Shown here: in pieces, positions 1,539 to 24,996 of the stretch | Layout: each line of letters starts with the position of its first letter | Position numbering within the stretch: position 1 is the first letter of the stretch | Assembly (NCBI RefSeq): GCF_000010625.1 | Contig: NC_010296.1 | Location: 2,670,001-2,702,000 of the forward strand | Origin: Microcystis aeruginosa NIES-843 | Lineage (GTDB): Bacteria; Cyanobacteriota; Cyanobacteriia; Cyanobacteriales; Microcystaceae | Length of the DNA stretch: 32,000 nt | Direction of reading: 5' to 3' | Program-made: the position numbers and the translations under genes | The notes under the pieces: model-generated | What the model was told of the DNA's origin: nothing | The model's input: only the letters and a program-made list of their open reading frames with translations | Database searches by the model: none

Positions 1539-1894
1539 TTTGTCCCTCTACTTTCATAATCCGCTTGTGCGCGTTTCATCCGTTCAACAATAAGCTTTAC
1601 ATCCTCTTGAGGTGTCTTGATTCCAGACTTCGACTTTTTCTGGAATGCGTGCAGAACGTAAACAACTTCAGCGAAGCGCACAGTATAGACCGCTCGATAA
1701 GTGTCGCCTCGATGATCTTCGACGATCTCAAATACTCCTGCCCCTTCACCCTTCCAAGGTTTAGCCTTTGGATGTTTACCCCCCAACTGCGCTAGACCAA
1801 GGGCATAGCCCATATCGTCCTGCACCTCGGCAGGGAAAGTCAGGTAGTCCTTTTTCGCAGAGGCCACCCAATACAAGGGTTTTTCCCGCGACAT
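1535..1894 (-). CDS. higB: HigB/RelE-superfamily toxin (phage Gp49-like, DUF891-type)
   Basis: 119 aa (KPLYWVASAKKDYLTFPAEVQ...YRAVYTVRFAEVVYVLHAFQKKS), typical of the Gp49-like toxin family. It is translationally coupled to higA. Confidence 0.8.
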   Translation of the reverse strand: MSREKPLYWVASAKKDYLTFPAEVQDDMGYALGLAQLGGKHPKAKPWKGEGAGVFEIVEDHRGDTYRAVYTVRFAEVVYVLHAFQKKSKSGIKTPQEDVKLIVERMKRAQADYESRGTK

Positions 1895-5711: not shown

Positions 5712-6941
5712 AGCTAAAACGCACTTAAACCACCTAAAATAGAAATAGTAATTTTAGAAAAATCCTACTTATGCCAGCAAAAGATTTCCTAGACTTAGAA
5801 GAAAAGAAAAACTTACAAAAAGCTCTTAAAGAAGAAGAAAGAGCAGAGGTTAGGGAAAGAATTTTAATGTTTCTCTTGCTAAACGACGGAAAAACTCAAC
5901 GAGAAATAGCTGACTTTATTGGCTGTTCACTCAAAACGGTCGCCCCTTGGTGTGTTCACGGTGATCCTAACAATTTAGAAAGTCTAGAAGATGGGAGAAA
6001 AAATGGAAATCATAAAAAAGCCACAGAGGAATATATTAATTTACTATTAAAAATAGTTGATGAAGACCCGAAGGAATTTGGATATGAATTCGGGAGATGG
6101 ACAGCGGCAAGATTAGCAGAGCATCTAGAAAAGGAAACAAGAATTAAACTGAGTGGCTCGCAAGTGAGAAGAATATTGAGAAGAAAAAAGTATGTGTATA
6201 TCTGGGCGAAATATAGTCTAGAAGATAAGCAAGACAAGAAATTAAGAAAAGCATTTAAAGAAAAATTAGATGAATATTTAAGGTTGGCTAAAGAAAAGCC
6301 AGAGTCAATCCAGGTATGGTTTTGGGACGGGGCTTTCAAGGTGGCGACGCAGGTTCGCCACACAGCCCCTCATGAGTGTGGATTTAGTTTGAGAGTAATA
6401 AGAAGGAGAGCTTGGACAAAAAAAGGAAAGCGAAAAAAAGTGAATGGACAAAGAAAAAGAGGAAGGGTGAATGTGATGGGAGCCTTAAGATATAATGACA
6501 AAAAACGAGTCTGTTTTATGAGCAAAAAAGGAAATTCAGAAACTTTCCATGAACAATTAAAGAAACTTCATGAAGAGATTCGTCAAGAATGGATAAACTT
6601 GGGAAATCTGCCCGAAGATTTTCGAGAAAAAGGACCGAAAATTATCATCATATTAGACAATGCTAGTTATCACAAAAAGAAAGATGTTATTGAGCAGGTG
6701 GAAAAAGAGTTGCCCAATATTAGGCTAGAGTTTTTACCAGCTTATAGTCCAGATTACAACCTAATAGAATTAGTGTGGCATTCCGCTAAAGAGTACATAG
6801 CTAATCGAGAATTTGAAAATAAAGAAGAACTGGAAAAAGTAGTCAATCAGCTTTTAAATGAAGGGGGATTGATTATTAAATGGAGTAGAAAACTTAAAAA
6901 TAAGGGTAATGCTGTCAATGTAACTTAAATGCGTAAAAGCT
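5712..6941 (+). mobile_element. IS630-family insertion sequence with TA duplication
   Basis: TIRs are AGCTAAAACGCACTTAA (5712-) and TTAAATGCGTAAAAGCT (-6941), flanked by TA at 5710-5711 and 6942-6943. Confidence 0.8.
5771..6928 (+). CDS. IS630-family (Tc1/mariner-like) DDE transposase
   Basis: 385 aa with an N-terminal HTH, ...ECGFSLRVIRRRAWTKKG..., ILDNASYHKK and LPAYSPDYNLIELVW motifs. It contains an anomalous 45-nt insert (see findings). Confidence 0.85.
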   Translation: MPAKDFLDLEEKKNLQKALKEEERAEVRERILMFLLLNDGKTQREIADFIGCSLKTVAPWCVHGDPNNLESLEDGRKNGNHKKATEEYINLLLKIVDEDPKEFGYEFGRWTAARLAEHLEKETRIKLSGSQVRRILRRKKYVYIWAKYSLEDKQDKKLRKAFKEKLDEYLRLAKEKPESIQVWFWDGAFKVATQVRHTAPHECGFSLRVIRRRAWTKKGKRKKVNGQRKRGRVNVMGALRYNDKKRVCFMSKKGNSETFHEQLKKLHEEIRQEWINLGNLPEDFREKGPKIIIILDNASYHKKKDVIEQVEKELPNIRLEFLPAYSPDYNLIELVWHSAKEYIANREFENKEELEKVVNQLLNEGGLIIKWSRKLKNKGNAVNVT

Positions 6942-7695: not shown

Positions 7696-8110
7696 TCAAG
7701 ATTTGCGTTTTAAGGCTGCACCTATTCCTAGAGTTCCGAAGGCGAGAATCCCAAGAATAGAGGAGGGTTCAGGAATTGAACTCGAAGCAGTCGGGAGTTG
7801 GATATTATCCACAATTTCAGGACAAATCGCAGCTCCACAACCAGGTGTTGTTATGCTTATTGCATCAAATGTAATATCACGAAACCCATAAAATGCTGGG
7901 TTTGCGGGGTTTGTGGTCACAGCATTGAATGACTCAACCAGGTTTCCGCCCAAGAAAGCTTGGAAAGTAGTAGTTCCATCTCCACTTTTAAAGCTAAACG
8001 CTGCCTCTGTTTGTGGTTTGGTGAAGTTGATACCTATGGGAAATCTGGCTGACCCAAAGCCGTACGGTACAAAGTTGCCGATACTGCCTCCGCCATTAGC
8101 CGCATCAAAG
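7696..8110 (-). pseudogene. PEP-CTERM secreted protein 2, C-terminal fragment
   Basis: Ends in IPEPSSILGILAFGTLGIGAALKRKS. It joins in frame to 10672-10912 when the nested IS block is removed. Confidence 0.7.
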
Positions 8111-8663
8111 GGGAGCAAGTCAGTTTTGTCAGAACATAAATACTATTCAATAGCTAAAGACTGTTATTTAGGTAAGCACAGCGGTGTTTAAGCACTTGAG
8201 GGATATTTTCTTCATTCCACTGGGCTCCAGAAATTTTCAGTCGTCGGTCAATCTGTTTAACCGTGGATTCAACGGCTCCCGAAGCAATAGAGCAAATCTC
8301 TTCTTGTTGATAGTAATTATAATTAACAATTCGATGACGATGAATCTCTAAATAACGACAGAAATTTTCAGCTCGTTCGTTTTTTAAAGGAGAGATTAAT
8401 GCTATTGTTTCCTCAATTTTGCCCTGCCATAATAAACTTGCTGCTTTTTTCAATCTCTTCACTGAACCGCCGACTTTATGAAGATTTTCTACCAAATGAA
8501 ACCAGTCAAGTATTTCTCTTTTTTCTCCTGGACAATCCCAGTTTTTCACAATTTTCCCAATACCGGGATGTCCGTCTCCCAAACAGGTAAGGGGGTCAGA
8601 TAAAGGTTGTTGATTAACCCAATATATTAACGATTCATTCTCTCCAAACCAAGCTTTTCTTAG

Positions 8664-10026
8664 TGGGACTTAAACGCCAAATAAAGATCAAATCGAGTAT
8701 AATCGTTAAAGAGTAAGCACTTTACGTTGAAAGATCAGCGATGAAAGAGACAACCCCAGCCGCGATGCCCCCATGCTTTGACCGATGGTGTCGGCGGTTT
8801 GACAATTGCTTCAAAAACGAAGCGCAAAAAAACGGCTTCAGACAATATTTAGGAGGATTATTAGGGGAAAGTGAGAGGAAAAACCTCACTCAAATTGCCA
8901 ATAATGCCGTCGGAGTAGTTTATAACCGATTACATCACTTTTTGACCGAATCTCCCTGGTCAGACCGTCAGGTGAATGAATGTCGGTTGCAAGTGATGAA
9001 CCAATGCCGCCAGACGCAAATCCCCCGAGGATTTTCCCTGATTGTCGATGACTCAGGACATCGAAAAAGTGGCAATCTGACCGCCGGAGTTGGCAGGCAG
9101 TACCTAGGAGAAATTGGCAAGACAGACAACGGAATAGTCGCCGTCACTACCCATCTCTACGACGGCAAAAAAAGTGTCCCCCTAGACATTGAAATTTATC
9201 AACCGGCTAGTTCCTTAGCCGAGGGGAAAGAAGACAAAGAATTTAAGAAGAAACCAGAGATAGCGATAGATTTAATTGACCGGAGCTTAACCAGAGGCTA
9301 TCGACCGAAAATCGTCTTAATAGATGCTGGTTATGGCAACAACACAAATTTTCTCAAAGCCCTGGAAGAAAGAAAGCTAAAATACTTAGGAGGATTGGCA
9401 AAAAATCGAAAAGTAATTATTGAAAAAGAAGGGGGTGTGGAAGAAACAATCCAGCTTGAGCAACTAGCAAAAAGCCTATCAGAAAAGGATTGGGAGAAAA
9501 TCACCCTAAATCTAGATAAAGAAAAAACGGTTTGGGTAGCGGTATTCAGAGCGAAAATATCTCAACTAGAAGGAGAAAGGAACTTGGCGATCGTCATGAA
9601 TGCAAGTTCAATGGAAAAAGCCACAGAGGTGGACTATTTCATCACCAATGTAGTTGAGGCAGATACAGTAACAGCTTCGTGGATAGTGAGGACTTACACC
9701 GAAAGAAATTGGGTGGAAGTATTCTACCGAGAAGCCAAAGGATGGTTAGGGTTAAGGGAATATCAAGTCAGGGATAAACGAAGCTTACTTCGTCATTTTA
9801 TCCTGGTGTTTTGTGCCTATACATTTATCCTGTGGCATAAGTTAACTGGGGGATTGCAAAGGCAGTGGGCGAATCGACCTTTAAACACTTTTGTGGAAGC
9901 CTTGGAAGCTTTTCGGACAGCGATGTCTTTCCGTTTCTTTGAGTGGCTGACCGAGAATCGGGATGTGTTTGCCGCTTACAAAGCCAGTTTAGGCTTTGTT
10001 TGGGCTTGAAATTTGTTTAAGTCCCA
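8664..10026 (+). mobile_element. IS701-family insertion sequence with 4-bp TTAG duplication
   Basis: TIRs are TGGGACTTAAACGCCAAAT (8664-) and the reverse complement of 10008-10026, TGGGACTTAAACAAATTTC. TTAG occurs at 8660-8663 and 10027-10030. Confidence 0.8.
8741..10009 (+). CDS. IS701-family DDE transposase
   Basis: 422 aa with LIVDDSGHRKSGNLTAGVGRQYLGEIGKTDNG and ...TERNWVEVFYREAKGWLGL motifs. Confidence 0.85.
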   Translation: MKETTPAAMPPCFDRWCRRFDNCFKNEAQKNGFRQYLGGLLGESERKNLTQIANNAVGVVYNRLHHFLTESPWSDRQVNECRLQVMNQCRQTQIPRGFSLIVDDSGHRKSGNLTAGVGRQYLGEIGKTDNGIVAVTTHLYDGKKSVPLDIEIYQPASSLAEGKEDKEFKKKPEIAIDLIDRSLTRGYRPKIVLIDAGYGNNTNFLKALEERKLKYLGGLAKNRKVIIEKEGGVEETIQLEQLAKSLSEKDWEKITLNLDKEKTVWVAVFRAKISQLEGERNLAIVMNASSMEKATEVDYFITNVVEADTVTASWIVRTYTERNWVEVFYREAKGWLGLREYQVRDKRSLLRHFILVFCAYTFILWHKLTGGLQRQWANRPLNTFVEALEAFRTAMSFRFFEWLTENRDVFAAYKASLGFVWA

Positions 10027-11041: not shown

Positions 11042-11371
11042 TTACTGCACTGCTAGAACAGAAATATGTCCGACCTCTTTTGTATCGCTGCGAGGCCGGA
11101 TGACGATCTCTACGTCTTGATTCAATGCCGTGAGAAATTCCATCAATCGTTCAACTGAAAATTGATCGAGCCGATAGTTTTTTAGTGCTGAAACCTTGGG
11201 CTGCGGGATATTAAGCAGTATGGCAATCTCCCTCTGTTTCAGCTTGCGACTTTTCAGAAGTTCGTTAACGGCCAGGGCTAGGCGTGTTTTCGTTTGCCGT
11301 TCGGTTGCGTCTGGATAACCAAGGTCAGCGAAAACGTTCGTGGTGCCGCGAGTGATTTCCAAATTGCTCAT
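11042..11371 (-). CDS. higA: HigA-like antitoxin, second (orphan) copy
   Basis: It differs from 1209-1538 at 6 nt, of which 5 are synonymous (the only amino-acid change is Y3N). Only the last ~20 nt of higB are retained upstream. Confidence 0.75.
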   Translation of the reverse strand: MSNLEITRGTTNVFADLGYPDATERQTKTRLALAVNELLKSRKLKQREIAILLNIPQPKVSALKNYRLDQFSVERLMEFLTALNQDVEIVIRPRSDTKEVGHISVLAVQ

Positions 11372-11390: not shown

Positions 11391-12712
11391 CGAAAATTTG
11401 GGTCTGAAACCCCGTCGTTCTACGACGGCTTTACCGTTAAATATTAGCGCATTTACACGATATATGCTAGAATGCGAGATATGGAAAAAGCCTATTCTTA
11501 CCGATTTTACCCCACACCAGAACAAGAGTCGCTATTGCGGCGCACTTTGGGCTGTGTAAGATTGGTTTACAATAAGGCACTCCATCTCAGAACACAAGCT
11601 TGGTATGAAAGACAAGAAAGAGTAGGATATACTGAAACTTCTTCAATGTTGACCGAGTGGAAAAAGCAAGAAGAATTAGACTTTCTCAATGAAGTAAGCT
11701 GTGTACCTTTACAACAAGGCTTAAGACATTTACAAACAGCTTTTACTAATTTCTTTGCTGGTCGTACTAAGTATCCTAACTTTAAGAAAAAACATCAGGG
11801 AGGAAGTGCCGAATTTACCAAATCTGCTTTTAAATTTAAAGACAAACAAATCTATTTAGCTAAATGCACAGAACCTTTACCTATTCGGTGGTCAAGACAA
11901 ATACCAGACGGATGTGAACCAAGCACAGTAACAGTCAGATTACATCCTTCTGGACGTTGGCATATTTCAATTAGATTTGATGACCCAACGATTAAGCCTC
12001 TACCAGTAACAGATAAAGCCATCGGAATTGACTTAGGAATTAGTAGCCTCGTGATTACCAGCGATGGCGATAAAGTATCTAATCCCAAGCATTTTAAAAA
12101 GCATTATCGGAGACTGCGAAGAGCATCTAAAAGTCTTTCTCGAAAACAGAAAGGCTCAAAGAATCGGGAAAAGGCAAAAATCAAAGTAGCCAGAATTCAC
12201 GCTCAAATCACCGATAGTAGAAAAGACCATTTACATAAGCTAACCACTCAATTAGTTCGTGAAAACCAAACGATTGTGGTTGAGAATTTAGCCGTCAAGA
12301 ATATGGTCAAAAACCCGAAATTATCTCAGGCAATATCTGATGTAAGCTGGGGAGAAATAACCCGACAATTAGCCTATAAATGCCGTTGGTATGGGAGAAA
12401 CTACATCGAAATAGATAGATGGTTTCCTAGCTCTAAAAGGTGTAGTAATTGCGGGTATATTGCCCTTGAAAATGCCGTTAAATGTTCGAGAGTGGGATTG
12501 TCCAGACTGTGGGACGCACCATGACCGAGATATTAACGCCAGTAAAAATATTTTGGCCGCAGGGCTTGCGGTGTCAGTCTGTAGAGCGACCATAAGACCA
12601 GAACAGAGTAAATCTGGGGCGGCAGGTGCGAAAAATCCTTCGGGAAAGAAGCAGAAACCCAAATCGTGAGGTTTGGGAATCGCCGTCCGTTTTACGGCGG
12701 CGAGGATGTCAA
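11391..12712 (+). mobile_element. IS200/IS605-family element, TnpB-only (copy 1)
   Basis: The left end CGAAAATTTGGGTCTGAAACCCCGTCGTTCTACGACGGCTTTAC lies directly after TTCAT. The right end is GGTTTGGGAATCGCCGTCCGTTTTACGGCGGCGAGGATGTCAA. There are no inverted repeats and no duplication, as expected for this family. Confidence 0.8.
11481..12669 (+). pseudogene. tnpB: TnpB (OrfB) RNA-guided nuclease gene with a +1 frame break in the zinc finger
   Basis: The sequence reads MEKAYSYRFYPTPEQ...GIDLG...VVENL...CSNCGYIA, then the frame shifts at about 12460-12466 to ...[28 protein letters not shown]. Confidence 0.8.
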
Positions 12713-12730
12713 GAAGTCTCCTTATTGAAT
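12530..12730 (+). ncRNA. Putative TnpB omega/reRNA (scaffold overlapping the tnpB 3' end and RE, guide from the flank)
   Basis: This is inferred only from the established TnpB architecture plus the RE hairpin TCGCCGTCCGTTTTACGGCGGCGA. The boundaries are approximate. The guide would start at about 12713 (GAAGTCTCCTTATTGA). Confidence 0.35.
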
Positions 12731-12879
12731 TTGTAGAATTTGAGAACTGCTTACCTGAGTCGAGTCAACAATTCTGCTTCTGCTATTACCCTGATAGATG
12801 GTTGTTTGATTTGATGTGTGAATTGATTAAAACTGTATGAATTGCCTGAATACGACACAAAACGTAACGGGCGATGCAC
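12714..12879 (-). repeat. Leader/promoter-like repeat, copy C (5'-truncated; abuts the hydroxylase stop and the TnpB element RE)
   Basis: Near-identical to copy B, with a 9-nt tandem duplication (gtagaattt). On the minus strand it ends in AATAAGGAGACTT at the IS boundary. Confidence 0.7.
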
Positions 12880-12882
12880 GAG

Positions 12883-13659
12883 TTAAACTCCATCGACTTT
12901 ACCCGTCAGACGCTCATCAAACTTCTGCTCATAATCGGGGTCTTGAGTTCCGAGGAGTTTGTCCCAGAACGTGAAATATAGACCGTAATGTACGGTGTAC
13001 TTGCGATGATGAATGGAATGATGGGCAGGACCAATAAACCACCGACCCAACCAATGATGGGGAAATGAGGAAGGCAAGCGATCGATCCCAAGATGATTTA
13101 ACACTGCCCAGATCGTCATCGTGGTGAGTGCCGCAATTAACGTGATGAAATGCAGGGGAAGGACAAAGACAATGCCGACCAGGAAGAGAGACTGAACGAT
13201 CGCCTCTAGTGGGTCAAAGGCAAACGAAGTCCACGGGGTAGGATAGCGCGAGCGATGATGCCCCTGGTGTAACCACCGAAAGAGTGACGGGTGGTGAAAC
13301 AAGCGATGGGTGAAATAGAAATAGGCATCCTGGAGAACCAACACAGCGCCATAACTAACCCCTAAATAACACAGCCCATACTGTTGAGGGTGGCTGTATA
13401 AGCGGGTAATGCCCCAACTGTATCCTGTCATGATGAAAGCCGCCGCCAGCGCAAACACCCCCGCCGAAAGAACCGAGAGCGTGATATCTTGTTGAATCGA
13501 TCGCCAAGAGGGAGACCAATGCCGCAGGTTGTGATTGACAAAGGACTGACTCAAGGGCGAATAGAAGAACAAATAGGTTCCCCCAGCCACGAGAAAGTAT
13601 CGCGCCAGGATGATCCCAAAGAAAGCGAACCCGTAAAATCCAAATGAGTGGTCTATCAA
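12883..13659 (-). CDS. Fatty acid hydroxylase / sterol desaturase superfamily membrane protein
   Basis: Multi-pass hydrophobic protein with His boxes HRLFHH, HQGHH, HHSIHH. I prefer the TTG at 13659, 6 nt after AGGAG and 1 nt after the NACHT stop. The alternative start at 13722 would overlap the NACHT gene by 62 nt. Confidence 0.75.
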   Translation of the reverse strand: MIDHSFGFYGFAFFGIILARYFLVAGGTYLFFYSPLSQSFVNHNLRHWSPSWRSIQQDITLSVLSAGVFALAAAFIMTGYSWGITRLYSHPQQYGLCYLGVSYGAVLVLQDAYFYFTHRLFHHPSLFRWLHQGHHRSRYPTPWTSFAFDPLEAIVQSLFLVGIVFVLPLHFITLIAALTTMTIWAVLNHLGIDRLPSSFPHHWLGRWFIGPAHHSIHHRKYTVHYGLYFTFWDKLLGTQDPDYEQKFDERLTGKVDGV

Positions 13660-13660
13660 T

Positions 13661-15970
13661 TTAATCTCCTTGCCATTCCCGATCTTCCAAGTCCTTTTGA
13701 GGTAACAGCAACGTGGCTTCAATTTCTTGCCGGATTGCGGCTGTTATTTCGCAGTTACTATTCAAACAATCGATCAGGAGTTGATTGGCCTCATAGTAGC
13801 GTTGGAGCAGCTGCTGTTGCTCAGTCGTAAACTGCCAGGGATGATGAATATTGCGATAATTGGCGATCGCACCCCGCAACTGTTCCACCCAGGCAGAATA
13901 GTTTTTCTGCCACCAGTGCTGAAGCCGTTCCGGGTTTTGACTCGGAGGTGGCAGTTGGTCTCTCAATTGTTGCAAAGACTTATAAAATCCAGCATCCAGA
14001 ACCATCACCAGAATGTTGTTGAGTGCCTCGCTACAAGCATTGACATAGGCAAAATCCTGACTGTGGTCGATGGCAAACTCTACCAGCAAGTTCTCCAACG
14101 CCGCATCTAAAAACATCCCCTGATCGAGCGTGCTGGCTAAGGCAAAGCGATCTGCCGTATGCGGGCTTTGGGCAAGGGCAAGGTAAAATGCGCGTGCGGT
14201 CGCCACTTTGGTTTCGTCTGGGAGCTGCTGGGATTTTTGGCTGGCCCAACTCAAAAACTCTTGCAGATAGGAGTCTTGCGCGACTAAGGCATCAATTTGT
14301 TGCTTCATCAACTGCACCAGCGCATCTGCACTTCGCAACATGGCAGCCGTTAACAAGAAGACTTCGCGCCAGTGGGAATCGGTGATGTGACTCACCAACC
14401 CTCCCAGTGCTTGTTCTAATGCCTGCAAATTATGGCTGGCAACTATTTTTCGAGCCGTGAAGTATTCTTGAAATGCCAGATAAGAAAATGAAAAAATGCC
14501 TCGCGCCCTTTCTGTGAGGATTCCATGCTGTGCCTCGATCGCTTTCAGCATGGCTTCGCTTTCGAGTTGGAGTTCCTCTGCTTCCAGGGTTGCACCTGGC
14601 AAATTCCGCAAATAGTCGCCAATGTATTGCTCAATCGTGCGTTGCTCAAAAAAATACTGCCCCTGTTCAAAAGTCACTGCTGCAAGCTGGCTCAACAGCC
14701 TCAATTTTTGGGGCAATAAAAACCCCCGGTAAACCTGATCGCGTTCGACTCCTCTCGCTTCATCCCATTTACCCAGCAGCAAATCCAGCCCTTGTTTATA
14801 AAACTCAGCCCGCTTGCTCGGAAATTTCCCTTGACCCTGAAACACCCAGCAGGCGAGATGCAGAAACAGAGGTGTCACCACCAGTTGCCGAAATTGCCAG
14901 TTTTCTGGCAAGTCCAACTTCTGCATAAACTGAGCCGACTGCTCCTGCCCCGCTTGAGCAGTCGTTTTGCTCAGTGCCACAAACCACTTTTGCGCGAAGG
15001 TGCTGATTTGTGCCTGGGTAAAGGGGGCAATTTCTACATCAGTGAAACCTCTAATCTGGAGTTTTTGGGCAGCGGTGCGACAGGTTACTACAAATCGATT
15101 GCGATGATACTTTTCTGAGAATTGGCGAATTTCTCTCAGAACTGCTGTAATGTCCTGGTTGAGAACTTCATCCATGCCATCGAGCAACAGCAGGACTCTG
15201 CCCGCTTGCAGTAAGGTTTCCAGCACAGACGGGTTGGAAATTCCCGAGGTGAGCAATGCCTGACGGATGTAGTTGAACAGGCTAAATTCACCACTGGGAC
15301 TGGACTCCTCGGCAAATTCTCTCAATAAGATAAAAATCGGCACTTGATTCGCAGCAAACTCGCCTTGGTTGCACTGAATCGCCAGATGTTGCAAAAAGGT
15401 AGTTTTGCCAACCCCCGGTCTCCCCAAAACTCTGAGCTTTGAGTAAGTTTCAACAGCCTGCATTCCGGGTATTTGCTTCTGCTCAACCTCTCCCAAACCG
15501 ACGCGATCGAATTCATCGGAACCCAAGTTTTGCCAATCGGCAATCTCCACCCACTGTTGACTGCCAATTTCTGCCAAAATATTGACATCCACATAGATGT
15601 CATCAATGCTGACTGGATGGCTGATATCTAGTAACTGCAAGATGCCGCACTGGTTTTGGATGGTGTCCCGGCGTCGCGCTCGCACCTCTTGCACCAGAGC
15701 ATCAATATTAGTTTTCGCCAGTTCTCCAGGTTCAGGAAATTCTGCGGGCGGAGCGAGGGCAATCTCCCGCCAATCCAAATCCAGAATCGAACAAATTTCC
15801 AGGAAAACCTGGCGATCGACGGGTTTCCCTGTGAAAAACCGCCAAATCGGCTGGCGGGTCTTTAAGTTCACTTCCCCTGCTAGATTTTCCTGAGTCCACC
15901 CCTTGAGCGCAAAGGCTCGTTTAGCCTGTTTAATTCCCGAAGGGGAAGCCTGGAGCGATCTCTTGACCAT
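13661..15970 (-). CDS. STAND NTPase with N-terminal HTH-like domain and NACHT module
   Basis: ATG at 15970, 10 nt after AAGGAGG. Walker A is GRPGVGKT (15401-15424) and Walker B is LLLLDGMDE. The C-terminal half is a long helical region without recognisable repeats. Confidence 0.85.
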   Translation of the reverse strand: MVKRSLQASPSGIKQAKRAFALKGWTQENLAGEVNLKTRQPIWRFFTGKPVDRQVFLEICSILDLDWREIALAPPAEFPEPGELAKTNIDALVQEVRARRRDTIQNQCGILQLLDISHPVSIDDIYVDVNILAEIGSQQWVEIADWQNLGSDEFDRVGLGEVEQKQIPGMQAVETYSKLRVLGRPGVGKTTFLQHLAIQCNQGEFAANQVPIFILLREFAEESSPSGEFSLFNYIRQALLTSGISNPSVLETLLQAGRVLLLLDGMDEVLNQDITAVLREIRQFSEKYHRNRFVVTCRTAAQKLQIRGFTDVEIAPFTQAQISTFAQKWFVALSKTTAQAGQEQSAQFMQKLDLPENWQFRQLVVTPLFLHLACWVFQGQGKFPSKRAEFYKQGLDLLLGKWDEARGVERDQVYRGFLLPQKLRLLSQLAAVTFEQGQYFFEQRTIEQYIGDYLRNLPGATLEAEELQLESEAMLKAIEAQHGILTERARGIFSFSYLAFQEYFTARKIVASHNLQALEQALGGLVSHITDSHWREVFLLTAAMLRSADALVQLMKQQIDALVAQDSYLQEFLSWASQKSQQLPDETKVATARAFYLALAQSPHTADRFALASTLDQGMFLDAALENLLVEFAIDHSQDFAYVNACSEALNNILVMVLDAGFYKSLQQLRDQLPPPSQNPERLQHWWQKNYSAWVEQLRGAIANYRNIHHPWQFTTEQQQLLQRYYEANQLLIDCLNSNCEITAAIRQEIEATLLLPQKDLEDREWQGD

Positions 15971-15999
15971 ACAATCCAATCCTCCTTATCGAGTCAGAA

Positions 16000-17568
16000 T
16001 CAGTTCTGGTTGGGACGACCAGAAACTTCTAAGGGATCGTAGCCTAGTTGTTGAGTAATCCGTTCTCTGGCTAAGGCCCGGTACTCCCAAAAATGTTCTC
16101 CCGCCGCGCACAGACCTAAATACAGATTGAGAACTTGGGGCTTTTTTTGCCAAATCGTCCATAATTGCCGCCAAAACTGTCCCCGAATGTTCCCTCGGCG
16201 GATACCCTGATGCCAGATTAACTGGGTAATCAGCCGTAACCCCTTCCCCACGGGAAATTGCATGGTTTGCTTGTGTTTTGACTGCAAACCCAGACCGAGA
16301 CATTGTTGGAAACAGCGTCGGAGATAGTGGCTGGGTTCGTACAGCGTCCAGAAGCCTTCGACATACTCTCTGGCAATTTCGGCAATCGGGCGGGTGGGGA
16401 TAAAATTCATCAAGCTATTCTGATCTCCCGTCGGATGGATGCTGTCACCCTCAACTAAACGCTGTTCTTGCTGGAGACGATTCCAGAGCGCCGTGTTGGG
16501 CGGAGCCTGGAGGATGCCTAACATGGGCTGAGGAATACTGGTTTCTTCCACAAAGGCTTGAATCCTTTCCCCCGCACCAGAGCGCTCTCCATCAAACCCC
16601 AAGATAAATCCAGCATAGATTAGCAAACCGGCTGCATTAATCTTGCGACAGGCTTCCACCAGTGGATTGCGAGTATTTTGCAGTTTGCGCGTCACTTGCA
16701 GACTATCTTGGTCAGGAGTTTCAATCCCCAGAAAGACAGAATAAAACCCCGCCTCAGCCATCAGGTGCAGTAATTCATCATCCTCTGCCAAATTGACCGA
16801 GGCTTCAGTAATAAAGGTGAAGGGATAGTCGTGCTGCTTCATCCAGGGAATCAAGTCTCTGAGAAAGCGTTTGACGTTGCGCTGATTGCCAATAAAGTTG
16901 TCATCGACGATGAACAACGAACCGCGCCAGCCTAGGTCGTAGAGAGTCTGCAACTCTGCTAAAGTCTGACTCGGCTCTTTAGTACGAGGTTTGCGCCCGT
17001 AGAGGGAAATAATGTCGCAAAATTCGCAGTTAAAAGGACAGCCGCGAGAGAATTGCACTGCCATCATTAAGTAATCGTCTCGCTGAAGCAGGTCGAAGCG
17101 GGGGATGGGGCTGAGGGTCACGTCTGGCTTGTCCCCAGAGCGGAAAATTCCCTGGCTTTGACCTTGAGCGATCGCCTCTAAAAACAGGGGAACGGTTAAC
17201 TCTCCCTCATCCAAAATGAGATAGTTCGCTCCAGAATCCAGGGCATCCTGGGGGACAGAGGTGGGGTAGGGACCGCCAACGGCGACTTTTTTGCCTAACT
17301 GCACGGCTTTTTGAATCAGAGCTTGAAAATCTGGCTTCTGGACCAACATGGCAGAGAGGATAACCAACTCACACCACTCCCAATCGGCTTCTGTTTCAGG
17401 ATTGACGTTGCGATCGTAAAATCGAATTTCCCAGTTTTGGGGGAGGAGGGCGGCGACAGTAATGATGCCGAGGGGTGGAATGGTGGCTTTCAGTCCCGCG
17501 ATTTCCATAAAGCGATCGTAAGACCAGAAAGACTGGGGAAACTCAGGGTAGAGTAACAGGGCTTTCAT
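16000..17568 (-). CDS. B12-binding-domain radical SAM protein (DUF4070-type C-terminus)
   Basis: 522 aa. The N-terminus MKALLLYPEFPQSFWS...PPLGIITVAA is typical of the cobalamin-binding class. The CPFNCEFC cluster motif is at 17017-17040. Confidence 0.9.
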   Translation of the reverse strand: MKALLLYPEFPQSFWSYDRFMEIAGLKATIPPLGIITVAALLPQNWEIRFYDRNVNPETEADWEWCELVILSAMLVQKPDFQALIQKAVQLGKKVAVGGPYPTSVPQDALDSGANYLILDEGELTVPLFLEAIAQGQSQGIFRSGDKPDVTLSPIPRFDLLQRDDYLMMAVQFSRGCPFNCEFCDIISLYGRKPRTKEPSQTLAELQTLYDLGWRGSLFIVDDNFIGNQRNVKRFLRDLIPWMKQHDYPFTFITEASVNLAEDDELLHLMAEAGFYSVFLGIETPDQDSLQVTRKLQNTRNPLVEACRKINAAGLLIYAGFILGFDGERSGAGERIQAFVEETSIPQPMLGILQAPPNTALWNRLQQEQRLVEGDSIHPTGDQNSLMNFIPTRPIAEIAREYVEGFWTLYEPSHYLRRCFQQCLGLGLQSKHKQTMQFPVGKGLRLITQLIWHQGIRRGNIRGQFWRQLWTIWQKKPQVLNLYLGLCAAGEHFWEYRALARERITQQLGYDPLEVSGRPNQN

Positions 17569-17627
17569 CGAAAAACTGGGTCTGAAACCCCGCCCTTTAG
17601 CGATAGCGGAGGGCGGCTTTACATAAG

Positions 17628-19062
17628 TTAGTGAGAAACAATTAAACCGTTAGAACGACGAATTAACTGAATCTTACTAACAGTTATCTGTCCCAATCGT
17701 TGACCATTGGCATCGCTTACAGATAGCTGTTTTTCGGTATCTCCACTAACATAACCAATTCCTTTGGGAGAAGAAATTAAATCTCCTTTACGGAACCCAT
17801 GTCTTGTGGTAGAGCCACCACATTTACGTCGTTTACCACCTTACAACTATGTCTGCTTCTTCATTGGAGGGGAATATACCGATGATCGAGTGAATATTTG
17901 TCATGAATTTCCTGTTTTTAGTACATAATTAGATTATATCCAACATTCCGCAGGTCAGATTCCACTTCATAAATATCCCTCTTTGGGAGTATCTCATTTA
18001 TGCAAGTGAGTAATTAGGGTTTGCTGAAAAAGTTTTTCTTGGGGGCAGGGTGTGGCCCCCCCAACCCCCCCGACATCGGGGGGGCAGTTGGGGTGTAGGG
18101 TTTTACCGATTTTGAAGGCAGGGAAAAAGTCCCTGAATTTTCCCCCCGATCACTCCCATATCTGGTACTTTTTGATTTACAAAAACTCTAAAAGTCTTAA
18201 CCAACAAGGGTTTTACCATTATTCAGCCAGCCCTAATTATACTTGTCCCTAAAACTGGTTTCTAGCAAGGCTTTCAAAATAGCTTGACATAAAACCTGAT
18301 TTAGGGGTTACAAAGGTGAGATGCTCCCTCCCTCTTAGCAATGCCATCGTTAGCATGACTTTCTGGTGATTGTTTTGCTTTATTTTTGGATTTTTCTAGT
18401 CGCAAATATTTTCTGAGATTAGAGGTTTGCCAACCAAAGCGAGTATGGACTTTTGCCAATTGAGATAGTTGCTCAATCGCCCATTTCTGTCTGACCATAA
18501 CTGGCGAAAAACCTTTTCTAGACTTAGCTCCTTTTCTACTGGAAGTTAGATCAATATCGGTTTTGACATACTCAAAGTAAATGTCAGTAATTGGATAGAT
18601 TTTGGTTAGTTCAGAAACGTCTCGAAGTTCAAGTTGACGATTAGCTCTAATTGAGGGAGCTAATTTTCCTTGTCTTCTATTTGAAAATCGTTTTTGTCGA
18701 TGCGCTCTTAGATTAAAAGAAAGTTGGCGGTTAATCCGTCTTTTTCTACGTCCTCTTCGCATTAAGCAGCGATTGTCTAGGCACTCTCTTACTCGCTTAA
18801 AAGGAAGTTCTAAGTGAGCCTTCCAAAGAGTAAAAAGGGAGGATTGAACACCAATTCCAGAGAATAATTTACCCGGGTCAATGCCAATAGCAATTGGTTG
18901 GGTTTTGCTATCGGAAGGTTCAGTGGTTAGCTGGACATAGAAAATATCTAAGTCGTTGAATTTACCGATAGCTTTTCCTTCCTTAATCCACCGCCTGGCC
19001 CGACTGGGTTTGGTGGGCATTAACGGTTTTCCGTCTTTTGAGATAACAGGAACTCTTGCTAT
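17628..19062 (-). pseudogene. isrB: IsrB (HNH-less IscB-like RuvC nickase), disrupted
   Basis: N-terminal fragment (18301-19062): VPVISKDGKPLMPTKPSRARRWIKEGKA (PLMP domain), IGIDPG (RuvC-I), an RRGRRKRRINR...RFSNRR bridge helix, FEYVK (RuvC-II) and SHANDGIA (RuvC-III). There is no CxxC/HNH segment. C-terminal fragment (17628-17840): ...RHGFRKGDLISSPKGIGYVSG... (TID-like). The two fragments are separated by about 460 bp that includes a MITE. There is no canonical start codon; an ATA at 19062 lies 8 nt after AAGGA. Confidence 0.65.
18011..18240. mobile_element. MITE (TIR ..TTAGGGYTKGCTGAA), copy 1, inside isrB
   Basis: TAATTAGGGTTTGCTGAA (18011-18028) pairs with TTCAGCCAGCCCTAATTA (18222-18239). 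The interior has long G and C homopolymer runs. About 30 bp at each end are shared with 23571-23812 in inverted orientation. Confidence 0.55.
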
Positions 19063-19296
19063 GGAGATAATCCTTAAGAGTGAAGTTAATGTCCCTTACC
19101 GCAACACAATCAAGATGTCTTGTCTAACAACGCTTTACCAATAAAGCTTAGAGAGAATCCGAACTAGGGAAGCATTCGGAAGTCTGTGCCAGATTGTGTC
19201 TCGATGCGGTAGTCTCTACTTGCGTCGCCTAAATTGGTCTAGGCAAGCCCCGTCCCTTTTAGGGCGGGGTTAGTGACGAATCAAATTATCTCAAAC
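19063..19296 (-). ncRNA. Putative IsrB omega-RNA (guide from the RE flank, scaffold between RE and the isrB start)
   Basis: About 210 nt of non-coding sequence lie between the RE (19280) and the isrB N-terminus, on the isrB strand. It begins with the hairpin CCCCGCCCTAAAAGGGACGGGG. The position matches the established IscB/IsrB architecture. The boundaries are not determined. Confidence 0.35.
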
Positions 19297-19601
19297 CCAG
19301 TCAACGCTTCGACATTTTGTCGGAAAGCGATTAAGGCATGATTAGCTTGATACTCGACGAGACCAGAGAAGATCGCCTCCGAGACTTCCTGCGAGACAAC
19401 GGTTTTGATCTCAATATTGGTGTTATAACCGACCATATCTCCCTGGCGGTTGCCGTGGCGACCTGCGCCCTGGGCTTGCGAGAGGGTATAGCCAGTTACG
19501 CCTAACTCTTGCAGCAGCTTGATCATGCGGTCTTGCAAGACGGTTTCACCAATGATGACAACCAGTACAGCCGGTTTAATGGGTAGGGATGAGGATGACA
19601 T
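19281..19601 (-). CDS. P-II-like (GlnB-superfamily) small signalling protein
   Basis: ATG at 19601, 6 nt after AGGAG. About 106 aa with the pattern ...VVIIGETVLQDRMIKLLQELGVTGYTLSQAQG.GRHG...IEIKTVV... Confidence 0.7.
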   Translation of the reverse strand: MSSSSLPIKPAVLVVIIGETVLQDRMIKLLQELGVTGYTLSQAQGAGRHGNRQGDMVGYNTNIEIKTVVSQEVSEAIFSGLVEYQANHALIAFRQNVEALTGFEII

Positions 19602-19639
19602 GGGCAACTCCTAAAATGGGTTTTTCAAAGACAATACTA

Positions 19640-19972
19640 TTGACATCCTCACCACGCCACTTTTTTTGGATGGTCGCGTCAATGGGGTTGACGCAGATAG
19701 CGAAAAACGCTTAATTGCTTAAGTCTGACACTTTCGACCCGTCCGTTTTCAGTGTCCGAATGCCGGACGGCCACTTTGAACAAGTCGAAAAAATCTCATG
19801 TTCAACCTTATTTCCTAGAAAGTTTTACTCGTTCAAGGCCGAATTTGACTTCTTTTCTGAACGAAACCCCCTACTATCTGTGGTCAGGGTTCAGTTTTTA
19901 GCTTGGTTATCGCTTTTTCCATTGTAGCTTAAAGCCGTCCTCAAAGGACGGGGTTTTCAACCCAAATTTTCG
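19640..19972 (-). mobile_element. Cargo-less IS200/IS605 derivative (PATE-like), 333 bp
   Basis: On the minus strand it starts with the LE-type CGAAAATTTGGGTTGAAAACCCCGTCCTTTGAGGACGGCTTTAAG, directly after ATTAT. It ends with the RE-type GGCGTGGTGAGGATGTCAA. There is no ORF inside. Confidence 0.6.
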
Positions 19973-19999: not shown

Positions 20000-20848
20000 T
20001 CAAGAGATGGCGATCGCCTCTGTTGTCGGTATCAAAATATTCTCGGAAATCGGCTTGGCATCGGGTAAGTAGTCCATAAAAAGCCTCATCTGATTCATTT
20101 GTACCGGACCAAAAATAGTGGCAAAAGAAACATCGGCTGCATCTCGTCCTGTGCCAACGCGAATTAGCCCGCTCTGAGGCACAAGGCGGGTAGGATCGAA
20201 AAGATACCAGCGACCCCCTAGATAAGCCTCAAACCAGGCATGAAAATCGGGGGGATTTAAACCATAGGCGTAGCCGGAAACAAAGCGTGCCGGAATGTTC
20301 AAAGCTCGACAAAAAGCAATACCTAAATGGGCAAAATCACGGCAAACGCCTACCCTTTCTATCGCTGTATCGCAAGCAGAAGTTAAAGAATCACTGCTAC
20401 CAGAGAGATACAAAACATTGTCATAAATCCAGTTACAGATAGCTGTCACCCTGGAATAACCAGGGACTAAATTGCCAAATTCAGCCGCGACAAAGCGCAA
20501 TAATCGATCTGACTGACAGTAACGACTCGGATAAAGATAGTACAAGATATCGAGGGGTAAATCGGCCGGCTTTACTTCAAAAATCGTACTGGGGTCTGAA
20601 TAATAAGGAGATAAGCCAACGGTTGCTCGATAGGAAATTTGCAAATTGCCAGGAGGGGCATTGAGTCGAAAGTATCGGTTTCCACTGACAGAAGTGATGT
20701 ATTCCTCAATCGACCGTTGAGAGTTAGAATGGAGGTCTTCCTGAACAATAATCTGATGGTTGTTGCTGACAATAGCAACATTAAGAATTAGAGTGCTTGC
20801 TTGCTCAATGCTGTAGGTTAATTCACAGCCAAGCTCATACTTTAGCAT
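20000..20848 (-). CDS. Transglutaminase-like cysteine protease family protein
   Basis: The start MLKYELGCELTY (ATG 20848) overlaps the upstream stop (ATATGCTAA). The catalytic context is GVCRDFAHL...DFHAWFEAYL...FDPT. The listed 21001 start is an overlapping extension. Confidence 0.8.
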   Translation of the reverse strand: MLKYELGCELTYSIEQASTLILNVAIVSNNHQIIVQEDLHSNSQRSIEEYITSVSGNRYFRLNAPPGNLQISYRATVGLSPYYSDPSTIFEVKPADLPLDILYYLYPSRYCQSDRLLRFVAAEFGNLVPGYSRVTAICNWIYDNVLYLSGSSDSLTSACDTAIERVGVCRDFAHLGIAFCRALNIPARFVSGYAYGLNPPDFHAWFEAYLGGRWYLFDPTRLVPQSGLIRVGTGRDAADVSFATIFGPVQMNQMRLFMDYLPDAKPISENILIPTTEAIAIS

Positions 20849-21348
20849 ATCGTTTTTCCCTGTCCTTTCAATACGAGCAGATGCTGGAGCCGAAGCCGAT
20901 TGTAACGCTGCACCCACAAACAAGGCAGGTTGAAGGCTGTTCCTACGGCGAGGTTTACCAGCACACCCCAGCCAGGAGTCCAGAGCATCGTCACTAACCA
21001 AAACAGCCAGATGGCGATGTGAACGTATTCCGCGCGACGGGTTTCAGCCAAAAAACGGGACATTACGGCACAGTCCCCACCGCCAACGGATGTTTTGCGA
21101 AAACCTCCTGGGAAGAAATCCCCTGCTTCTGGCAACCGATCCTTCCATCGCTTGATCCGCAGTACCCGATTGTACCATTGTCTATCTTCCCCCCAGGGTC
21201 GTGGCCGGGTCAGGCAGGTGTCCGTTTCTAGGAATTTCAGGGGAAGTCGATGACCGACAAAACCGATCAAAAGTGACCAGGCTGTCCAACCGACCACACA
21301 AAGCCCGACAATTACCCCATCCGGTAACTGTAGTATAGATAATCTCAT
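20842..21348 (-). CDS. Membrane acyltransferase of the glycosyl-4,4'-diaponeurosporenoate acyltransferase (CrtO-like) family
   Basis: 168 aa with the ETRRAEYVHIAIW and VQRYNRLRL motifs. The ATG directly follows the GT2 stop (TGAATG). Confidence 0.65.
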   Translation of the reverse strand: MRLSILQLPDGVIVGLCVVGWTAWSLLIGFVGHRLPLKFLETDTCLTRPRPWGEDRQWYNRVLRIKRWKDRLPEAGDFFPGGFRKTSVGGGDCAVMSRFLAETRRAEYVHIAIWLFWLVTMLWTPGWGVLVNLAVGTAFNLPCLWVQRYNRLRLQHLLVLKGQGKTIC

Positions 21349-22443
21349 TCATTCACCTTGCCATCGGGTACTTATCCTTCGTCCTTTCCATTCGATTTGA
21401 CCACGTTCGAGATTCAGAATTGCCAGCAGGAACACTGCAATGAAGAAGGCAACCGGAATGGGGAAGAAAAAGACGATTGCTCCGAATGAACCCACTGGCC
21501 ATACAATTATGGCTAACTGTATGGCGAAGGCAAGATAAAGCAGTACGTTATATAGTAAGGATGAATTCCCGACAATCGGCCAGCCGAATAGGGATGCGGG
21601 CAGACACCAAGCCGCCCAGAACAGCCCTGAAAGCCAGAACACAACCGCCAGCATCCGCAGCCAAGAGACTTCCCCTGCTGCCGTTGCAAAGTTTTTGTCG
21701 AAACCAACAACCAAGTCCCGCAGCCCGCCGGGGTACATCCGATAGTCCAGTTGGCCATGACCAATGTAGGCACTTGCTGGCAGTCCCGCACTCTCATAAA
21801 TATGAGCCATGAACCAGTCTTCTACAACATATCCTGCCACAGCGTCGTGGCCGCCGACCCGCTCATAGTCATGCTTGCTGGTAGCCATAGCCGGTCCAAA
21901 AGCCACACCACCTCTTGCTCCCAGTTTGACGGCCATCAAGCCGACGAGATTGAACAGAACCGCTAACAGTTCGTAGGGGCGTTCAGTGCGGTGATAGGGC
22001 TGAACTGAGACCAGACCACCTAAGTGTTGAACAGTTGCCACCAGCCTGCGGAGCAGCTCCTCCCCTGGCTCAGTGTCGGCATCGAGAAAGACGAGAATAT
22101 CGCCAGATGAGGCTGCATATCCGGTTTTGAGTGCCCAGTTTTTCCCTGTCCAACCTGTGGGCAAAGGGCTAGTCTGCACTACTTTCACCCCGGCCTGTTC
22201 GGCGATCTGTGGGGTAGCATCGGCGGACTGGTCATCGATGACAATGATTTCGTAGGGCTTGAATGTTTGCTGCTTTAAGGCTGTTAGCAAATTAGGGAGG
22301 GTACTCTCTTCATTCCTCGCCGGAATCAAGACCGAGACTTTAGGCGAACCGACGACTGAAAGGTCTGGAAGTCGCGGCAACCGCCACATCAATCCCCAGC
22401 CTATTAGCCAGCGCACCACCAGTGTGATGGACATCAGATCCAT
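21349..22443 (-). CDS. Family 2 glycosyltransferase with C-terminal membrane domain (CrtQ-like)
   Basis: Motifs are VSVLIPARNEE, IIVIDDQSAD, WTGKNWA and VFLDADT. The C-terminus has multiple transmembrane segments. Confidence 0.85.
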   Translation of the reverse strand: MDLMSITLVVRWLIGWGLMWRLPRLPDLSVVGSPKVSVLIPARNEESTLPNLLTALKQQTFKPYEIIVIDDQSADATPQIAEQAGVKVVQTSPLPTGWTGKNWALKTGYAASSGDILVFLDADTEPGEELLRRLVATVQHLGGLVSVQPYHRTERPYELLAVLFNLVGLMAVKLGARGGVAFGPAMATSKHDYERVGGHDAVAGYVVEDWFMAHIYESAGLPASAYIGHGQLDYRMYPGGLRDLVVGFDKNFATAAGEVSWLRMLAVVFWLSGLFWAAWCLPASLFGWPIVGNSSLLYNVLLYLAFAIQLAIIVWPVGSFGAIVFFFPIPVAFFIAVFLLAILNLERGQIEWKGRRISTRWQGE

Positions 22444-24507: not shown

Positions 24508-24996
24508 TTAACTCCCCCTTCCACGGCGTTCAAACAACCGTTCGACCTTGGGAATTAAGGATAAGATTCCCAAGGCTAAGAGAGTGCTGAGAATGGCCGT
24601 CGCTTCTCGCCCCATCCCAGCCGCTACGCCGATGGCCGCCGTTAGCCATATGCCCGCCGCCGTGGTCATCCCCTTAGCCTCCTCTTGGTGCCTTCCTATA
24701 ATGATCGATCCGGCCCCAAGGAATCCCACCCCAGCGATCAAGCCCTGCAACACACGAGTTAAATCTGCGATCGATGCCCCAGATTGTTGAGGAATGAGGA
24801 CGAAGAGTGCTGCCCCGAAAGAAACCAGCATATGCGTTCGCAACCCTGCCGCCTTGCCCTTGATCTCCCGATCGTACCCCAGTAGACCACCAAGGATCGC
24901 CGCAAGCAGGAAGCGTAAAATGATGCGGATAATTTGAGCCACATCGGTGATCTCGGAGAATTCCGATAGCACAGTATTCCATATCACTTGCCACAC
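24508..24996 (-). CDS. MgtC/SapB-family membrane protein
   Basis: GTG at 24996, 8 nt after AAGGAGG. Motifs are GYDREIKGKAAGLRTHMLV, GVGFLGAGSII and GMTTAAGIWLTAAIGVAAG. Confidence 0.8.
   Translation of the reverse strand: MWQVIWNTVLSEFSEITDVAQIIRIILRFLLAAILGGLLGYDREIKGKAAGLRTHMLVSFGAALFVLIPQQSGASIADLTRVLQGLIAGVGFLGAGSIIIGRHQEEAKGMTTAAGIWLTAAIGVAAGMGREATAILSTLLALGILSLIPKVERLFERRGRGS

Follow-up and report, generated by a model that had tools for sequence, protein, structure and literature searches.

A NACHT protein and a membrane hydroxylase of Microcystis aeruginosa as parts of a putative cyanobacterial stress and lipid/carotenoid module

Within 32,000 nucleotides of DNA from Microcystis aeruginosa NIES-843 (contig NC_010296.1, positions 2,670,001 to 2,702,000; this whole stretch is the window in what follows, and coordinates count from its first letter), three minus-strand genes are closely packed, encoding a cobalamin-type radical S-adenosylmethionine (SAM) protein, a helix-turn-helix (HTH)-NACHT protein of the STAND NTPases and a membrane di-iron hydroxylase. 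On balance, we favour the view that this trio represents, in its Microcystis form, a cyanobacterial stress and lipid/carotenoid module of deep conservation, in which a MalT-like switch is joined to an oxygenase, and not a defence system. A previous reading, made from the letters and without database searches (the sequence-only reading), had put forward a novel defence system built around NACHT, with enzymes as its effectors, and, as a more ordinary option, a transcription factor of the STAND type in control of two lipid-modifying enzymes; it is the ordinary option that fits the evidence better. The three open reading frames (ORFs) lie exactly where that reading had placed them, and its motifs and domain calls hold:

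16000..17568 (-): radical SAM gene, 522 amino acids (aa), predicted class B cobalamin-type radical SAM protein of the 'HpnP-like' clade with DUF4070
15971..15999 (-): spacer of 29 nt between the radical SAM and NACHT genes, with the Shine-Dalgarno sequence AAGGAGG at 15981-15987, 10 nt before the ATG
13661..15970 (-): NACHT gene, 769 aa, HTH-NACHT-NCH2 STAND NTPase
15755..15970 (-): XRE/Cro-type HTH, residues 1-72 of the NACHT protein, from the family profile and the AlphaFold2 (AF2) model
14981..15430 (-): NACHT nucleotide-binding domain, with Walker A GRPGVGKT at 15401-15424 and Walker B LLLLDGMDE at 15167-15193
13700..13984 (-): NCH2, NACHT C-terminal helical domain 2 (Pfam PF22727), 75% conserved across orders
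13657..13670 (-): junction coupling the NACHT and hydroxylase genes (AGGAG, TAA, one base, TTG)
12883..13659 (-): hydroxylase gene, 258 aa, FA_hydroxylase or 'sterol desaturase' membrane di-iron oxygenase

The NACHT and hydroxylase genes meet in a tight junction. AGGAG (13666-13670) lies within the final NACHT codons and is followed by the stop codon TAA (13661-13663), a single nucleotide and the hydroxylase start codon TTG (13657-13659). In 18 loci, which include the window and span several cyanobacterial orders, the hydroxylase starts at the same position, either with TTG 1 nt past the stop codon or with ATG abutting TGA. The common form reads ...TGGCAAGGAGAT TAA A TTG ATA..., and four of the 18 loci read ...GGAGAT TGA ATG ATA... 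with a 0-nt spacer. The presence of ATG at this position in other loci confirms the hydroxylase start at 13659, and Microcystis annotations contain a 258-aa hydroxylase product identical to that of the window. As the stop/start junction is kept in 18 loci, coupling by termination-reinitiation appears to be old and maintained. With both genes on the same strand, a spacer of 0-1 nt, GGAG upstream of the start and conservation of the whole, the pair is predicted to form a translationally coupled operon. At the other junction, the radical SAM stop codon TGA (16000-16002) is followed by AAGGAGG (15981-15987) and the NACHT ATG at 15970. This 29-nt spacer with its Shine-Dalgarno sequence is kept in all Microcystis loci and is found in Microcystis only; three Microcystis contigs match the locus at 98%. 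Thus, of the tight packing that the sequence-only reading had described, the coupling of NACHT to hydroxylase is conserved across cyanobacterial orders, whereas the junction of radical SAM to NACHT is specific to Microcystis and does not stand as a general feature.

Full-length orthologues of the NACHT protein, 73-88% identical, were found in 361 species-representative genomes; almost all of these are titled as cyanobacteria, and they extend from Microcystis to Nostocales and to Leptolyngbya-like and Pseudanabaena-like lineages. Region by region, identity to the window protein amounts to 69-85%, and the C-terminal putative 'sensor' is no exception; a neighbour-joining tree of the orthologues broadly tracks taxonomy. 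A few genomes have two orthologue copies, and one copy is plasmid-borne. Within a large family of HTH-NACHT-NCH2 paralogues, the protein and its orthologues form a single group of exceptional conservation.

Pfam assigns NACHT (6.5e-19) and NCH2 (1.3e-36) domains to this protein. An AF2 model computed from an alignment of 42 sequences, paralogues included, reached a predicted local distance difference test score (pLDDT) of 85.7, as compared to 43 with an alignment of 14 near-identical orthologues; its N-terminal domain consists of five short helices with a pLDDT of ~90. The best Foldseek matches of the model in the PDB were NLRC4 (5e-13), NLRP3, NOD2 and NAIP5, and Avs4 matched much more weakly (3e-5). 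These matches indicate a genuine NLR-type NACHT protein, in which the usual helical and winged-helix modules are followed by further helices and NCH2. The ~450-aa helical C-terminus of the sequence-only reading needs to be redrawn accordingly, as it takes in NLR-type HD1/WHD/HD2 modules plus NCH2; its statement that no effector can be recognised there was borne out by a Pfam scan of the NACHT protein, which revealed no effector-type enzymatic domain (nuclease, TIR, SIR2, protease etc.). The 'HTH-like' N-terminus could be assigned at the profile level and not from the single sequence: the ~72 N-terminal residues of the window protein alone gave no Pfam match, even at E<=10. A profile built from 24 N-termini of the family matched HipB (1.8e-5), C.BclI and the 434 repressor in the PDB, and Pfam HTH_3 was found directly in 16 of 24 paralogue N-termini (best 5e-9), which together identify the N-terminus as an XRE/Cro-type HTH. 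By its predicted domains, the protein joins a STAND NTPase to a DNA-binding-type domain, as do regulators of the MalT/AfsR/GutR type.

To define the gene context, ORFs were called and clustered in 80 loci with a NACHT orthologue, up to 10 kb on either side; neighbours were judged from Pfam labels and ORF clustering, not from a full DefenseFinder run. The commonest neighbour is the hydroxylase gene, located up to 3.5 kb downstream of the NACHT gene in 25 of the 80 loci. The following proteins also recur, all of them Pfam-checked with the exception of the pentapeptide repeat protein:

single-domain response regulator: 24 loci of 80
phycobiliprotein-like protein: 21 loci of 80
fasciclin: 15 loci of 80
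pentapeptide repeat protein: 15 loci of 80, read from sequence without a Pfam run
DesC-like fatty-acid desaturase: 12 loci of 80
PRC-barrel protein: 12 loci of 80
DUF1830 protein: 12 loci of 80
CsbD: 10 loci of 80
orange carotenoid protein (OCP): 10 loci of 80
P-II-like protein: 9 loci, the window counted
YflT-like protein: 9 loci, the window counted

The recurrent neighbours thus have to do with stress, photoprotection and lipids, and defence genes are not among them. In Nostocales, the desaturase gene is divergent from the NACHT gene and lies 400-660 bp upstream. The NACHT orthologue of Geminocystis is preceded by PlsX and FabH and followed by hemerythrin, DUF2382, ferritin and Pmp3 genes, and that of Leptolyngbya NIES-2104 is preceded by ClpB and followed by genes for a phycobiliprotein-like protein, a fatty-acid desaturase, fasciclin and NblA. 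Fasciclin proteins can bind carotenoids (PMC10147662). The sequence-only reading had itself named conservation in a metabolic setting away from defence islands as evidence against its proposal, and the context found here, of stress and lipid/carotenoid genes without defence genes, is in spirit of this kind.

The hydroxylase belongs to the FA_hydroxylase family (PF04116, 6.2e-29). It has the three His boxes of this superfamily, HRLFHH (13291-13308), HQGHH (13255-13269) and HHSIHH (13006-13023), together with three hydrophobic stretches for the membrane-spanning segments. Orthologues are 75-87% identical, and source annotations call the protein sterol C5-desaturase or lathosterol oxidase. No NCBIfam model matched the protein, and a sequence search of the PDB gave nothing. 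A 'sterol C5-desaturase' of M. aeruginosa, MAE_29450, is upregulated under nitrogen stress (PMC4681089) and might correspond to the hydroxylase of the window.

The radical SAM protein carries B12-binding (PF02310, 6.5e-11, residues 27-127), Radical_SAM (PF04055, 9.3e-14, residues 172-328) and DUF4070 (5.1e-49) domains, and the motif CPFNCEFC at 17017-17040 corresponds to residues 177-184. An N-terminal B12-binding domain with a CxxxCxxC core marks it as a predicted class B radical SAM protein, and the three domains in combination are the architecture of HpnP (PMC10697835). Its orthologues are 80-89% identical across cyanobacteria, and a sequence search of the PDB returned distant radical SAM matches only. 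Some Microcystis records label the protein 'hopanoid 2-methyltransferase'. Its identity to the bona fide HpnP of Planktothrix FACHB-1375 reaches only 34%, Hoshino et al. list Microcystis with a squalene-hopene cyclase and HpnP as 'ND' (PMC10697835), and Calothrix NIES-4101 has a separate HpnP besides the radical SAM orthologue, all of which indicates that this label is a mis-annotation; HpnP itself was ruled out as the identity of the protein by the 34% identity and the listing of Microcystis without HpnP. According to the same authors, HpnP is joined in many cyanobacteria by a further, uncharacterised 'HpnP-like' protein (PMC10697835). A second 'HpnP-like' clade was also noted, comprising L010:15463-17061, L019:14065-15642 (L numbers denote the loci compared) and ~35 metagenome loci (L095-L133), with 50-59% identity to the radical SAM protein of the window and 40% to HpnP; this makes at least two uncharacterised cyanobacterial DUF4070 radical SAM clades besides HpnP.

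The radical SAM gene is also found near one or both partners outside Microcystis. Calothrix NIES-4101 has radical SAM followed by hydroxylase without NACHT, and metagenome contig L090 has P-II-like, radical SAM and hydroxylase genes in this order. In Phormidium CLA17, the order is fasciclin, radical SAM, NblA, DUF3134 and hydroxylase←NACHT, the hydroxylase gene being downstream of the NACHT gene, with the radical SAM gene 2 kb from this pair. Radical SAM and NACHT genes are divergent and 2 kb apart in Stenomitos (L026), and lie within 8 kb of each other in L089. Two further loci (L010 and L019) have a 57-58% identical radical SAM paralogue 1.7-3 kb downstream of NACHT-hydroxylase. In Pleurocapsa PCC 7327 (L083), the radical SAM orthologue lies amid two OCP genes and genes for HCP, fasciclin, NblA, Psb34 and an SRPBCC protein, and is adjoined by a pair of genes for a family 2 glycosyltransferase (GT2) and a CrtO-like acyltransferase. 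A metagenome scan for relatives of the radical SAM protein yielded mostly 40-59% identical paralogues without hydroxylase or NACHT neighbours, and orthologues in 8 loci. As the radical SAM gene recurs near NACHT or hydroxylase in other lineages, a functional link between the three proteins is likely from gene order.

How the three genes became adjacent can be read in part from the region upstream of the NACHT gene. In most other lineages, a conserved AU-rich sequence precedes the NACHT start (TTAnCATAG ... TATAAAAT ... TTTATAAAAGTTTAAATTTTGAGTCTTAATATGAGCTTTTTATTTT ATG), and the conserved upstream sequence in other species reads TTTATAAAAGTTTAAATTTTGAGTCTTAATATGAG. This leader lies ~90 nt upstream of the start in L005, L017, L029, L062, L072 (e.g. 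L072:9905-10000) and others, and 16 nt ahead of the NACHT start it contains an upstream ATG that is out of frame (TATGAG). A weight-matrix scan located it at NACHT starts only, across cyanobacterial orders, and found it absent from the window. RNAalifold predicted no structure for the leader RNA, and single-sequence energies were not below those of shuffled sequences, which makes a promoter/operator or an unstructured leader more likely; the element could serve as an operator or in translation. In Microcystis, the leader is replaced by the 3' end of the radical SAM gene with its Shine-Dalgarno sequence, that is, by comparison of the loci the arrangement of radical SAM before NACHT is a derived one. 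A shared promoter or leader upstream of the radical SAM orthologues was sought and none was found.

Further features upstream of the trio are as follows:

17630..19020 (-): decayed IscB-like (RRXRR, OMEGA-type) element; Pfam RRXRR, NCBIfam IscB at 94.5 bits with a cut-off of 175
19281..19607 (-): P-II-like protein, 108 aa; Pfam P-II, no NCBIfam model match
20000..22443 (-): GT2 glycosyltransferase (CruG/HpnB-like), CrtO-like acyltransferase and transglutaminase-like gene, from Pfam and NCBIfam

The IscB-like element has an intact N-terminal ORF of 239 aa followed by frameshifted C-terminal remnants. It separates the P-II-like gene from the radical SAM gene and, being outside the module, sets its present upstream boundary. 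A GC-rich hairpin (GCCGCCCTCC...GGGCGGGG, ~17585-17620) adjoins its end. The P-II-like gene probably came first in the ancestral order, ahead of the radical SAM gene, and its product may partner the module in signalling. The GT2 and CrtO-like pair (20842-22443), the same pair as next to the radical SAM orthologue of Pleurocapsa PCC 7327, is encoded 4 kb ahead of the trio and shares its strand. The GT2 gene abuts the acyltransferase gene with no spacer, and the transglutaminase-like ORF overlaps the latter; the best NCBIfam matches of GT2 were CruG and HpnB, far below the cut-offs. In layout, these genes are reminiscent of a cassette for carotenoid or hopanoid glycoside esters, and their products are possible pathway partners of the trio.

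On the other side of the trio, a second Microcystis locus (L002) has a HigB/HigA-like pair, YflT and CsbD directly downstream of the hydroxylase gene. In the window, unlike in L002, an IS-rich block of ~10 kb lies between the hydroxylase and those genes (IS, insertion sequence). The 'accessory island' look of the window is therefore secondary, and the defence-island setting put forward by the sequence-only reading cannot be upheld: the IS and toxin-antitoxin clutter is a secondary insertion, absent from another Microcystis genome. Surroundings rich in such elements had been considered as a mark of a defence island and were ruled out as such by the L002 comparison and by the neighbouring proteins, as 10 further proteins of the window had no match in PADLOC. 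The window contains a Gp49/HigB-like toxin gene with an HTH_37 antitoxin gene at 1209-1894 (-), and an orphan HTH_37 gene with identical Pfam score at 11042-11371 (-), beside a TnpB gene; with the pair directly downstream of the hydroxylase gene in L002, this suggests a duplication plus IS insertions of ~10 kb in the window. Three TnpB/Cas12f-like (OrfB_IS605) genes are present at 11472-12669, 25186-26229 and 28507-29100, all on the plus strand, the first frameshifted into two ORFs and the third N-terminally truncated, and DDE transposase genes are located at 3931-5121, 5771-6928, 8741-10009 and 27307-28098. Other genes encode a PEP-CTERM protein (7696-8118, minus strand), an MgtC-family protein (24508-24996, minus strand) and a YflT-like stress protein (332-946, minus strand), the latter also being a recurrent neighbour of NACHT orthologues elsewhere. 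Rfam and tRNA scans of the whole window gave no match.

In the model that we favour, the core would be a bicistronic unit of NACHT followed by hydroxylase, with the hydroxylase translated by termination-reinitiation from the NACHT gene. In Microcystis, this unit would have lost its own promoter and leader and been joined to the 3' end of the radical SAM gene with a new Shine-Dalgarno sequence, and the P-II-like gene preceding the radical SAM gene would have been split off by the IscB-type insertion. The NACHT protein would act in the manner of MalT, AfsR or CIITA: its helical C-terminus would sense a ligand or protein signal, ATP-driven oligomerization would follow, and the N-terminal HTH domains would bind DNA and switch a stress/photoprotection regulon. 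Hydroxylase and radical SAM protein would modify a ring-bearing isoprenoid lipid of the membrane, most likely a carotenoid, as suggested by the neighbourhood, and possibly a hopanoid, as suggested by the family resemblance to HpnP and sterol desaturases. The modified lipid might be part of the response, or the two enzymes might make or remove the signal. As a pure inference, the O2-independent radical SAM protein and the O2-dependent di-iron enzyme could represent alternative routes to one modification, like BchE and AcsF. In its most specific form, the proposal reads that a non-immune NLR-type XRE-HTH-NACHT-NCH2 protein senses a ligand and, driven by ATP, switches transcription in cyanobacterial stress and photoprotection, and that it is translationally coupled to a di-iron oxygenase which together with the HpnP-like radical SAM protein makes or removes a carotenoid or hopanoid signal or protectant; this we offer tentatively, as it is less probable than the broader module.

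Several observations weigh against this model. The hydroxylases linked to radical SAM genes are only 60-67% identical to that of the window and may, by this divergence, represent a paralogue or second subtype. The presumed substrate has the gene neighbourhood as its sole basis. The IscB-like element ends ~60 nt before the ATG of the radical SAM gene, which bears on the promoter of the operon, and consensus scans for promoters and terminators of 12500-19800 stayed at chance level. The N-terminus of the window protein itself reaches only 0.019 against Pfam HTH_31. The HTH-NACHT-NCH2 family comprises 2310 representatives at E<=1e-30, and paralogue expansion of such kind is read as conflict-related in the literature. 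Finally, the translational coupling of regulator and enzyme would also fit a physical complex of NACHT protein and hydroxylase, and in Calothrix PCC 7507, Leptolyngbyaceae JSC-12 and Planktothrix the radical SAM orthologue stands alone amid housekeeping genes.

Competing explanations were weighed as well. One holds that only the NACHT-hydroxylase unit is functional, the radical SAM gene belonging to an unrelated pathway and having arrived upstream by a rearrangement accident in an IS-rich genome. This would agree with a direct junction to NACHT in Microcystis only, with the isolation of the orthologue in the three genomes just named, which are well assembled, and with the decayed IscB element and the TnpB gene that flank the trio. 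However, the linkage recurs independently, in varied orders and on both strands (L026, L085, L089, L081 and L090, and for the paralogue L010 and L019). By a rough estimate, a radical SAM gene would lie within 10 kb of NACHT by chance in ~0.4-0.8% of genomes, whereas it was observed in 4 of ~78 lineages when sampled from the NACHT side and in 2 of 11 from the radical SAM side. Moreover, the new Shine-Dalgarno sequence and the 29-nt spacer are kept throughout Microcystis. We therefore regard an accident as unlikely. Somewhat less probable still is that the NACHT protein acts as an ATP-driven scaffold or chaperone, controlling the hydroxylase and perhaps the radical SAM protein at the membrane, with the coupling setting stoichiometry and the HTH-like fold serving protein contacts. 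The conserved termination-reinitiation junction does suggest co-production in fixed proportion, the N-terminus of the window protein is a weak HTH match, and NLRs typically work via protein assemblies. On the other hand, Nostocales and others keep the NACHT gene without an adjacent hydroxylase gene and often divergent from a fatty-acid desaturase gene, which is the typical layout of regulator and target, and the N-terminal profile matches the DNA-binding XRE proteins mentioned above.

The explanation to which we give the lowest probability, a very small one, is that of a NACHT-centred antiphage or conflict system, in which the NACHT protein would sense infection and radical SAM protein and hydroxylase would be the effectors, through a toxic or antiviral molecule or membrane damage. 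Such a role could draw on the true NLR-type NACHT fold with Avs4 among the weaker structural matches, on membership in a large paralogue-rich cyanobacterial family, on the HTH-type 'adaptor' N-termini listed among bacterial NACHT proteins (Kibby et al.), on the toxin-antitoxin genes and many IS elements of the window, and on a weak PADLOC match. The proposal fails on models, conservation and context alike. No curated defence model was reached: the NACHT protein scored 26.5 bits against NCBIfam EruA, which has a cut-off of 1000, and its best PADLOC match was the candidate PDC-S60 (37 bits, 2.5e-10), restricted to the NTPase region. The NACHT/STAND module is shared with antiphage systems, but defence-island context (neighbours in the 80 loci being judged from Pfam labels and ORF clustering) and patchy, fast evolution were not found; defence NLRs are not as conserved across orders as this protein is, putative sensor included, and the neighbourhoods of its orthologues and the secondary nature of the IS/toxin-antitoxin block beside the trio argue in the same direction. 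The comparison of the radical SAM protein with viperin made in the sequence-only reading likewise has to be given up, as its class B architecture with B12-binding domain and DUF4070 is HpnP-like, its best NCBIfam matches were B12 methylase/cyclase families, and PADLOC gave 14.5 bits only. Its strong conservation, often amid housekeeping genes, also speaks against a defence effector.

A literature search on the trio, on NACHT with OCP, fasciclin or radical SAM, and on the Microcystis locus tags returned no paper on the module. The NACHT-hydroxylase-radical SAM module is thus undescribed in the literature searched and is best filed as a NACHT-based STAND regulator with N-terminal XRE HTH, tied to lipid-modifying enzymes. 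As to its enzymes, the radical SAM protein has the same domain architecture as the hopanoid C-2 methylase HpnP but is distant from it in sequence. The hydroxylase appears to share the three His boxes and the membrane di-iron fold with CrtG (carotenoid 2,2'-beta-hydroxylase), CrtZ, ERG3 (sterol C-5 desaturase) and ERG25 (C-4 methyl oxidase), but has no solved relative and no NCBIfam model to place it with any of them. The GT2 and CrtO-like pair recalls CrtQ/CrtO of staphyloxanthin synthesis, to CruC/CruD and to CruG, but its genes are neighbours of the trio and not members, and genes for the carotenoid-binding proteins OCP, HCP and fasciclin recur around the module. If our model is true, it would provide a handle on the function of 'HpnP-like' radical SAM proteins, which complicate hopanoid-biomarker genomics, and on the role of cyanobacterial 'sterol desaturase' genes.

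With bNACHT proteins (Kibby et al. 2023) and Avs/EruA, the NACHT protein has in common the NACHT module, a C-terminal helical domain of the NCH series and a tripartite layout, whereas it differs by the lack of an enzymatic effector, by its extreme cross-order conservation and by its non-defence context. A bacterial NACHT protein is nowadays taken for an antiphage sensor almost automatically. The present clade clearly runs counter to this habit: its conservation and synteny speak for a core physiological function in cyanobacteria, the bloom-forming Microcystis among them. If true, this would also be a warning against defence calls made from domain content and mobile-element clutter.

MalT of Escherichia coli, AfsR and other SARP-STAND proteins of Streptomyces, GutR of Bacillus subtilis and mammalian CIITA all combine a P-loop STAND NTPase with a DNA-targeting module and a helical sensor, and in regulators of the MalT type ligand- and ATP-driven oligomerization is expected to switch transcription. 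The NACHT protein of the window shares with them the STAND NTPase, a DNA-targeting-type module and a helical region. Unlike MalT, AfsR and GutR, it has an NTPase of the NACHT clade with an NLRC4/NLRP3-like fold, and its DNA-binding domain is an N-terminal XRE/Cro HTH instead of the C-terminal LuxR HTH or N-terminal SARP domain of known regulators. A further difference from these regulators is its translational coupling to a membrane oxygenase. The existence of STAND clades outside defence, and of transcription factors among STAND proteins, is recognized (10.64898/2026.01.04.697583). If our model holds true, the protein would represent a bacterial NACHT-based transcription switch, in functional parallel to CIITA and MalT.

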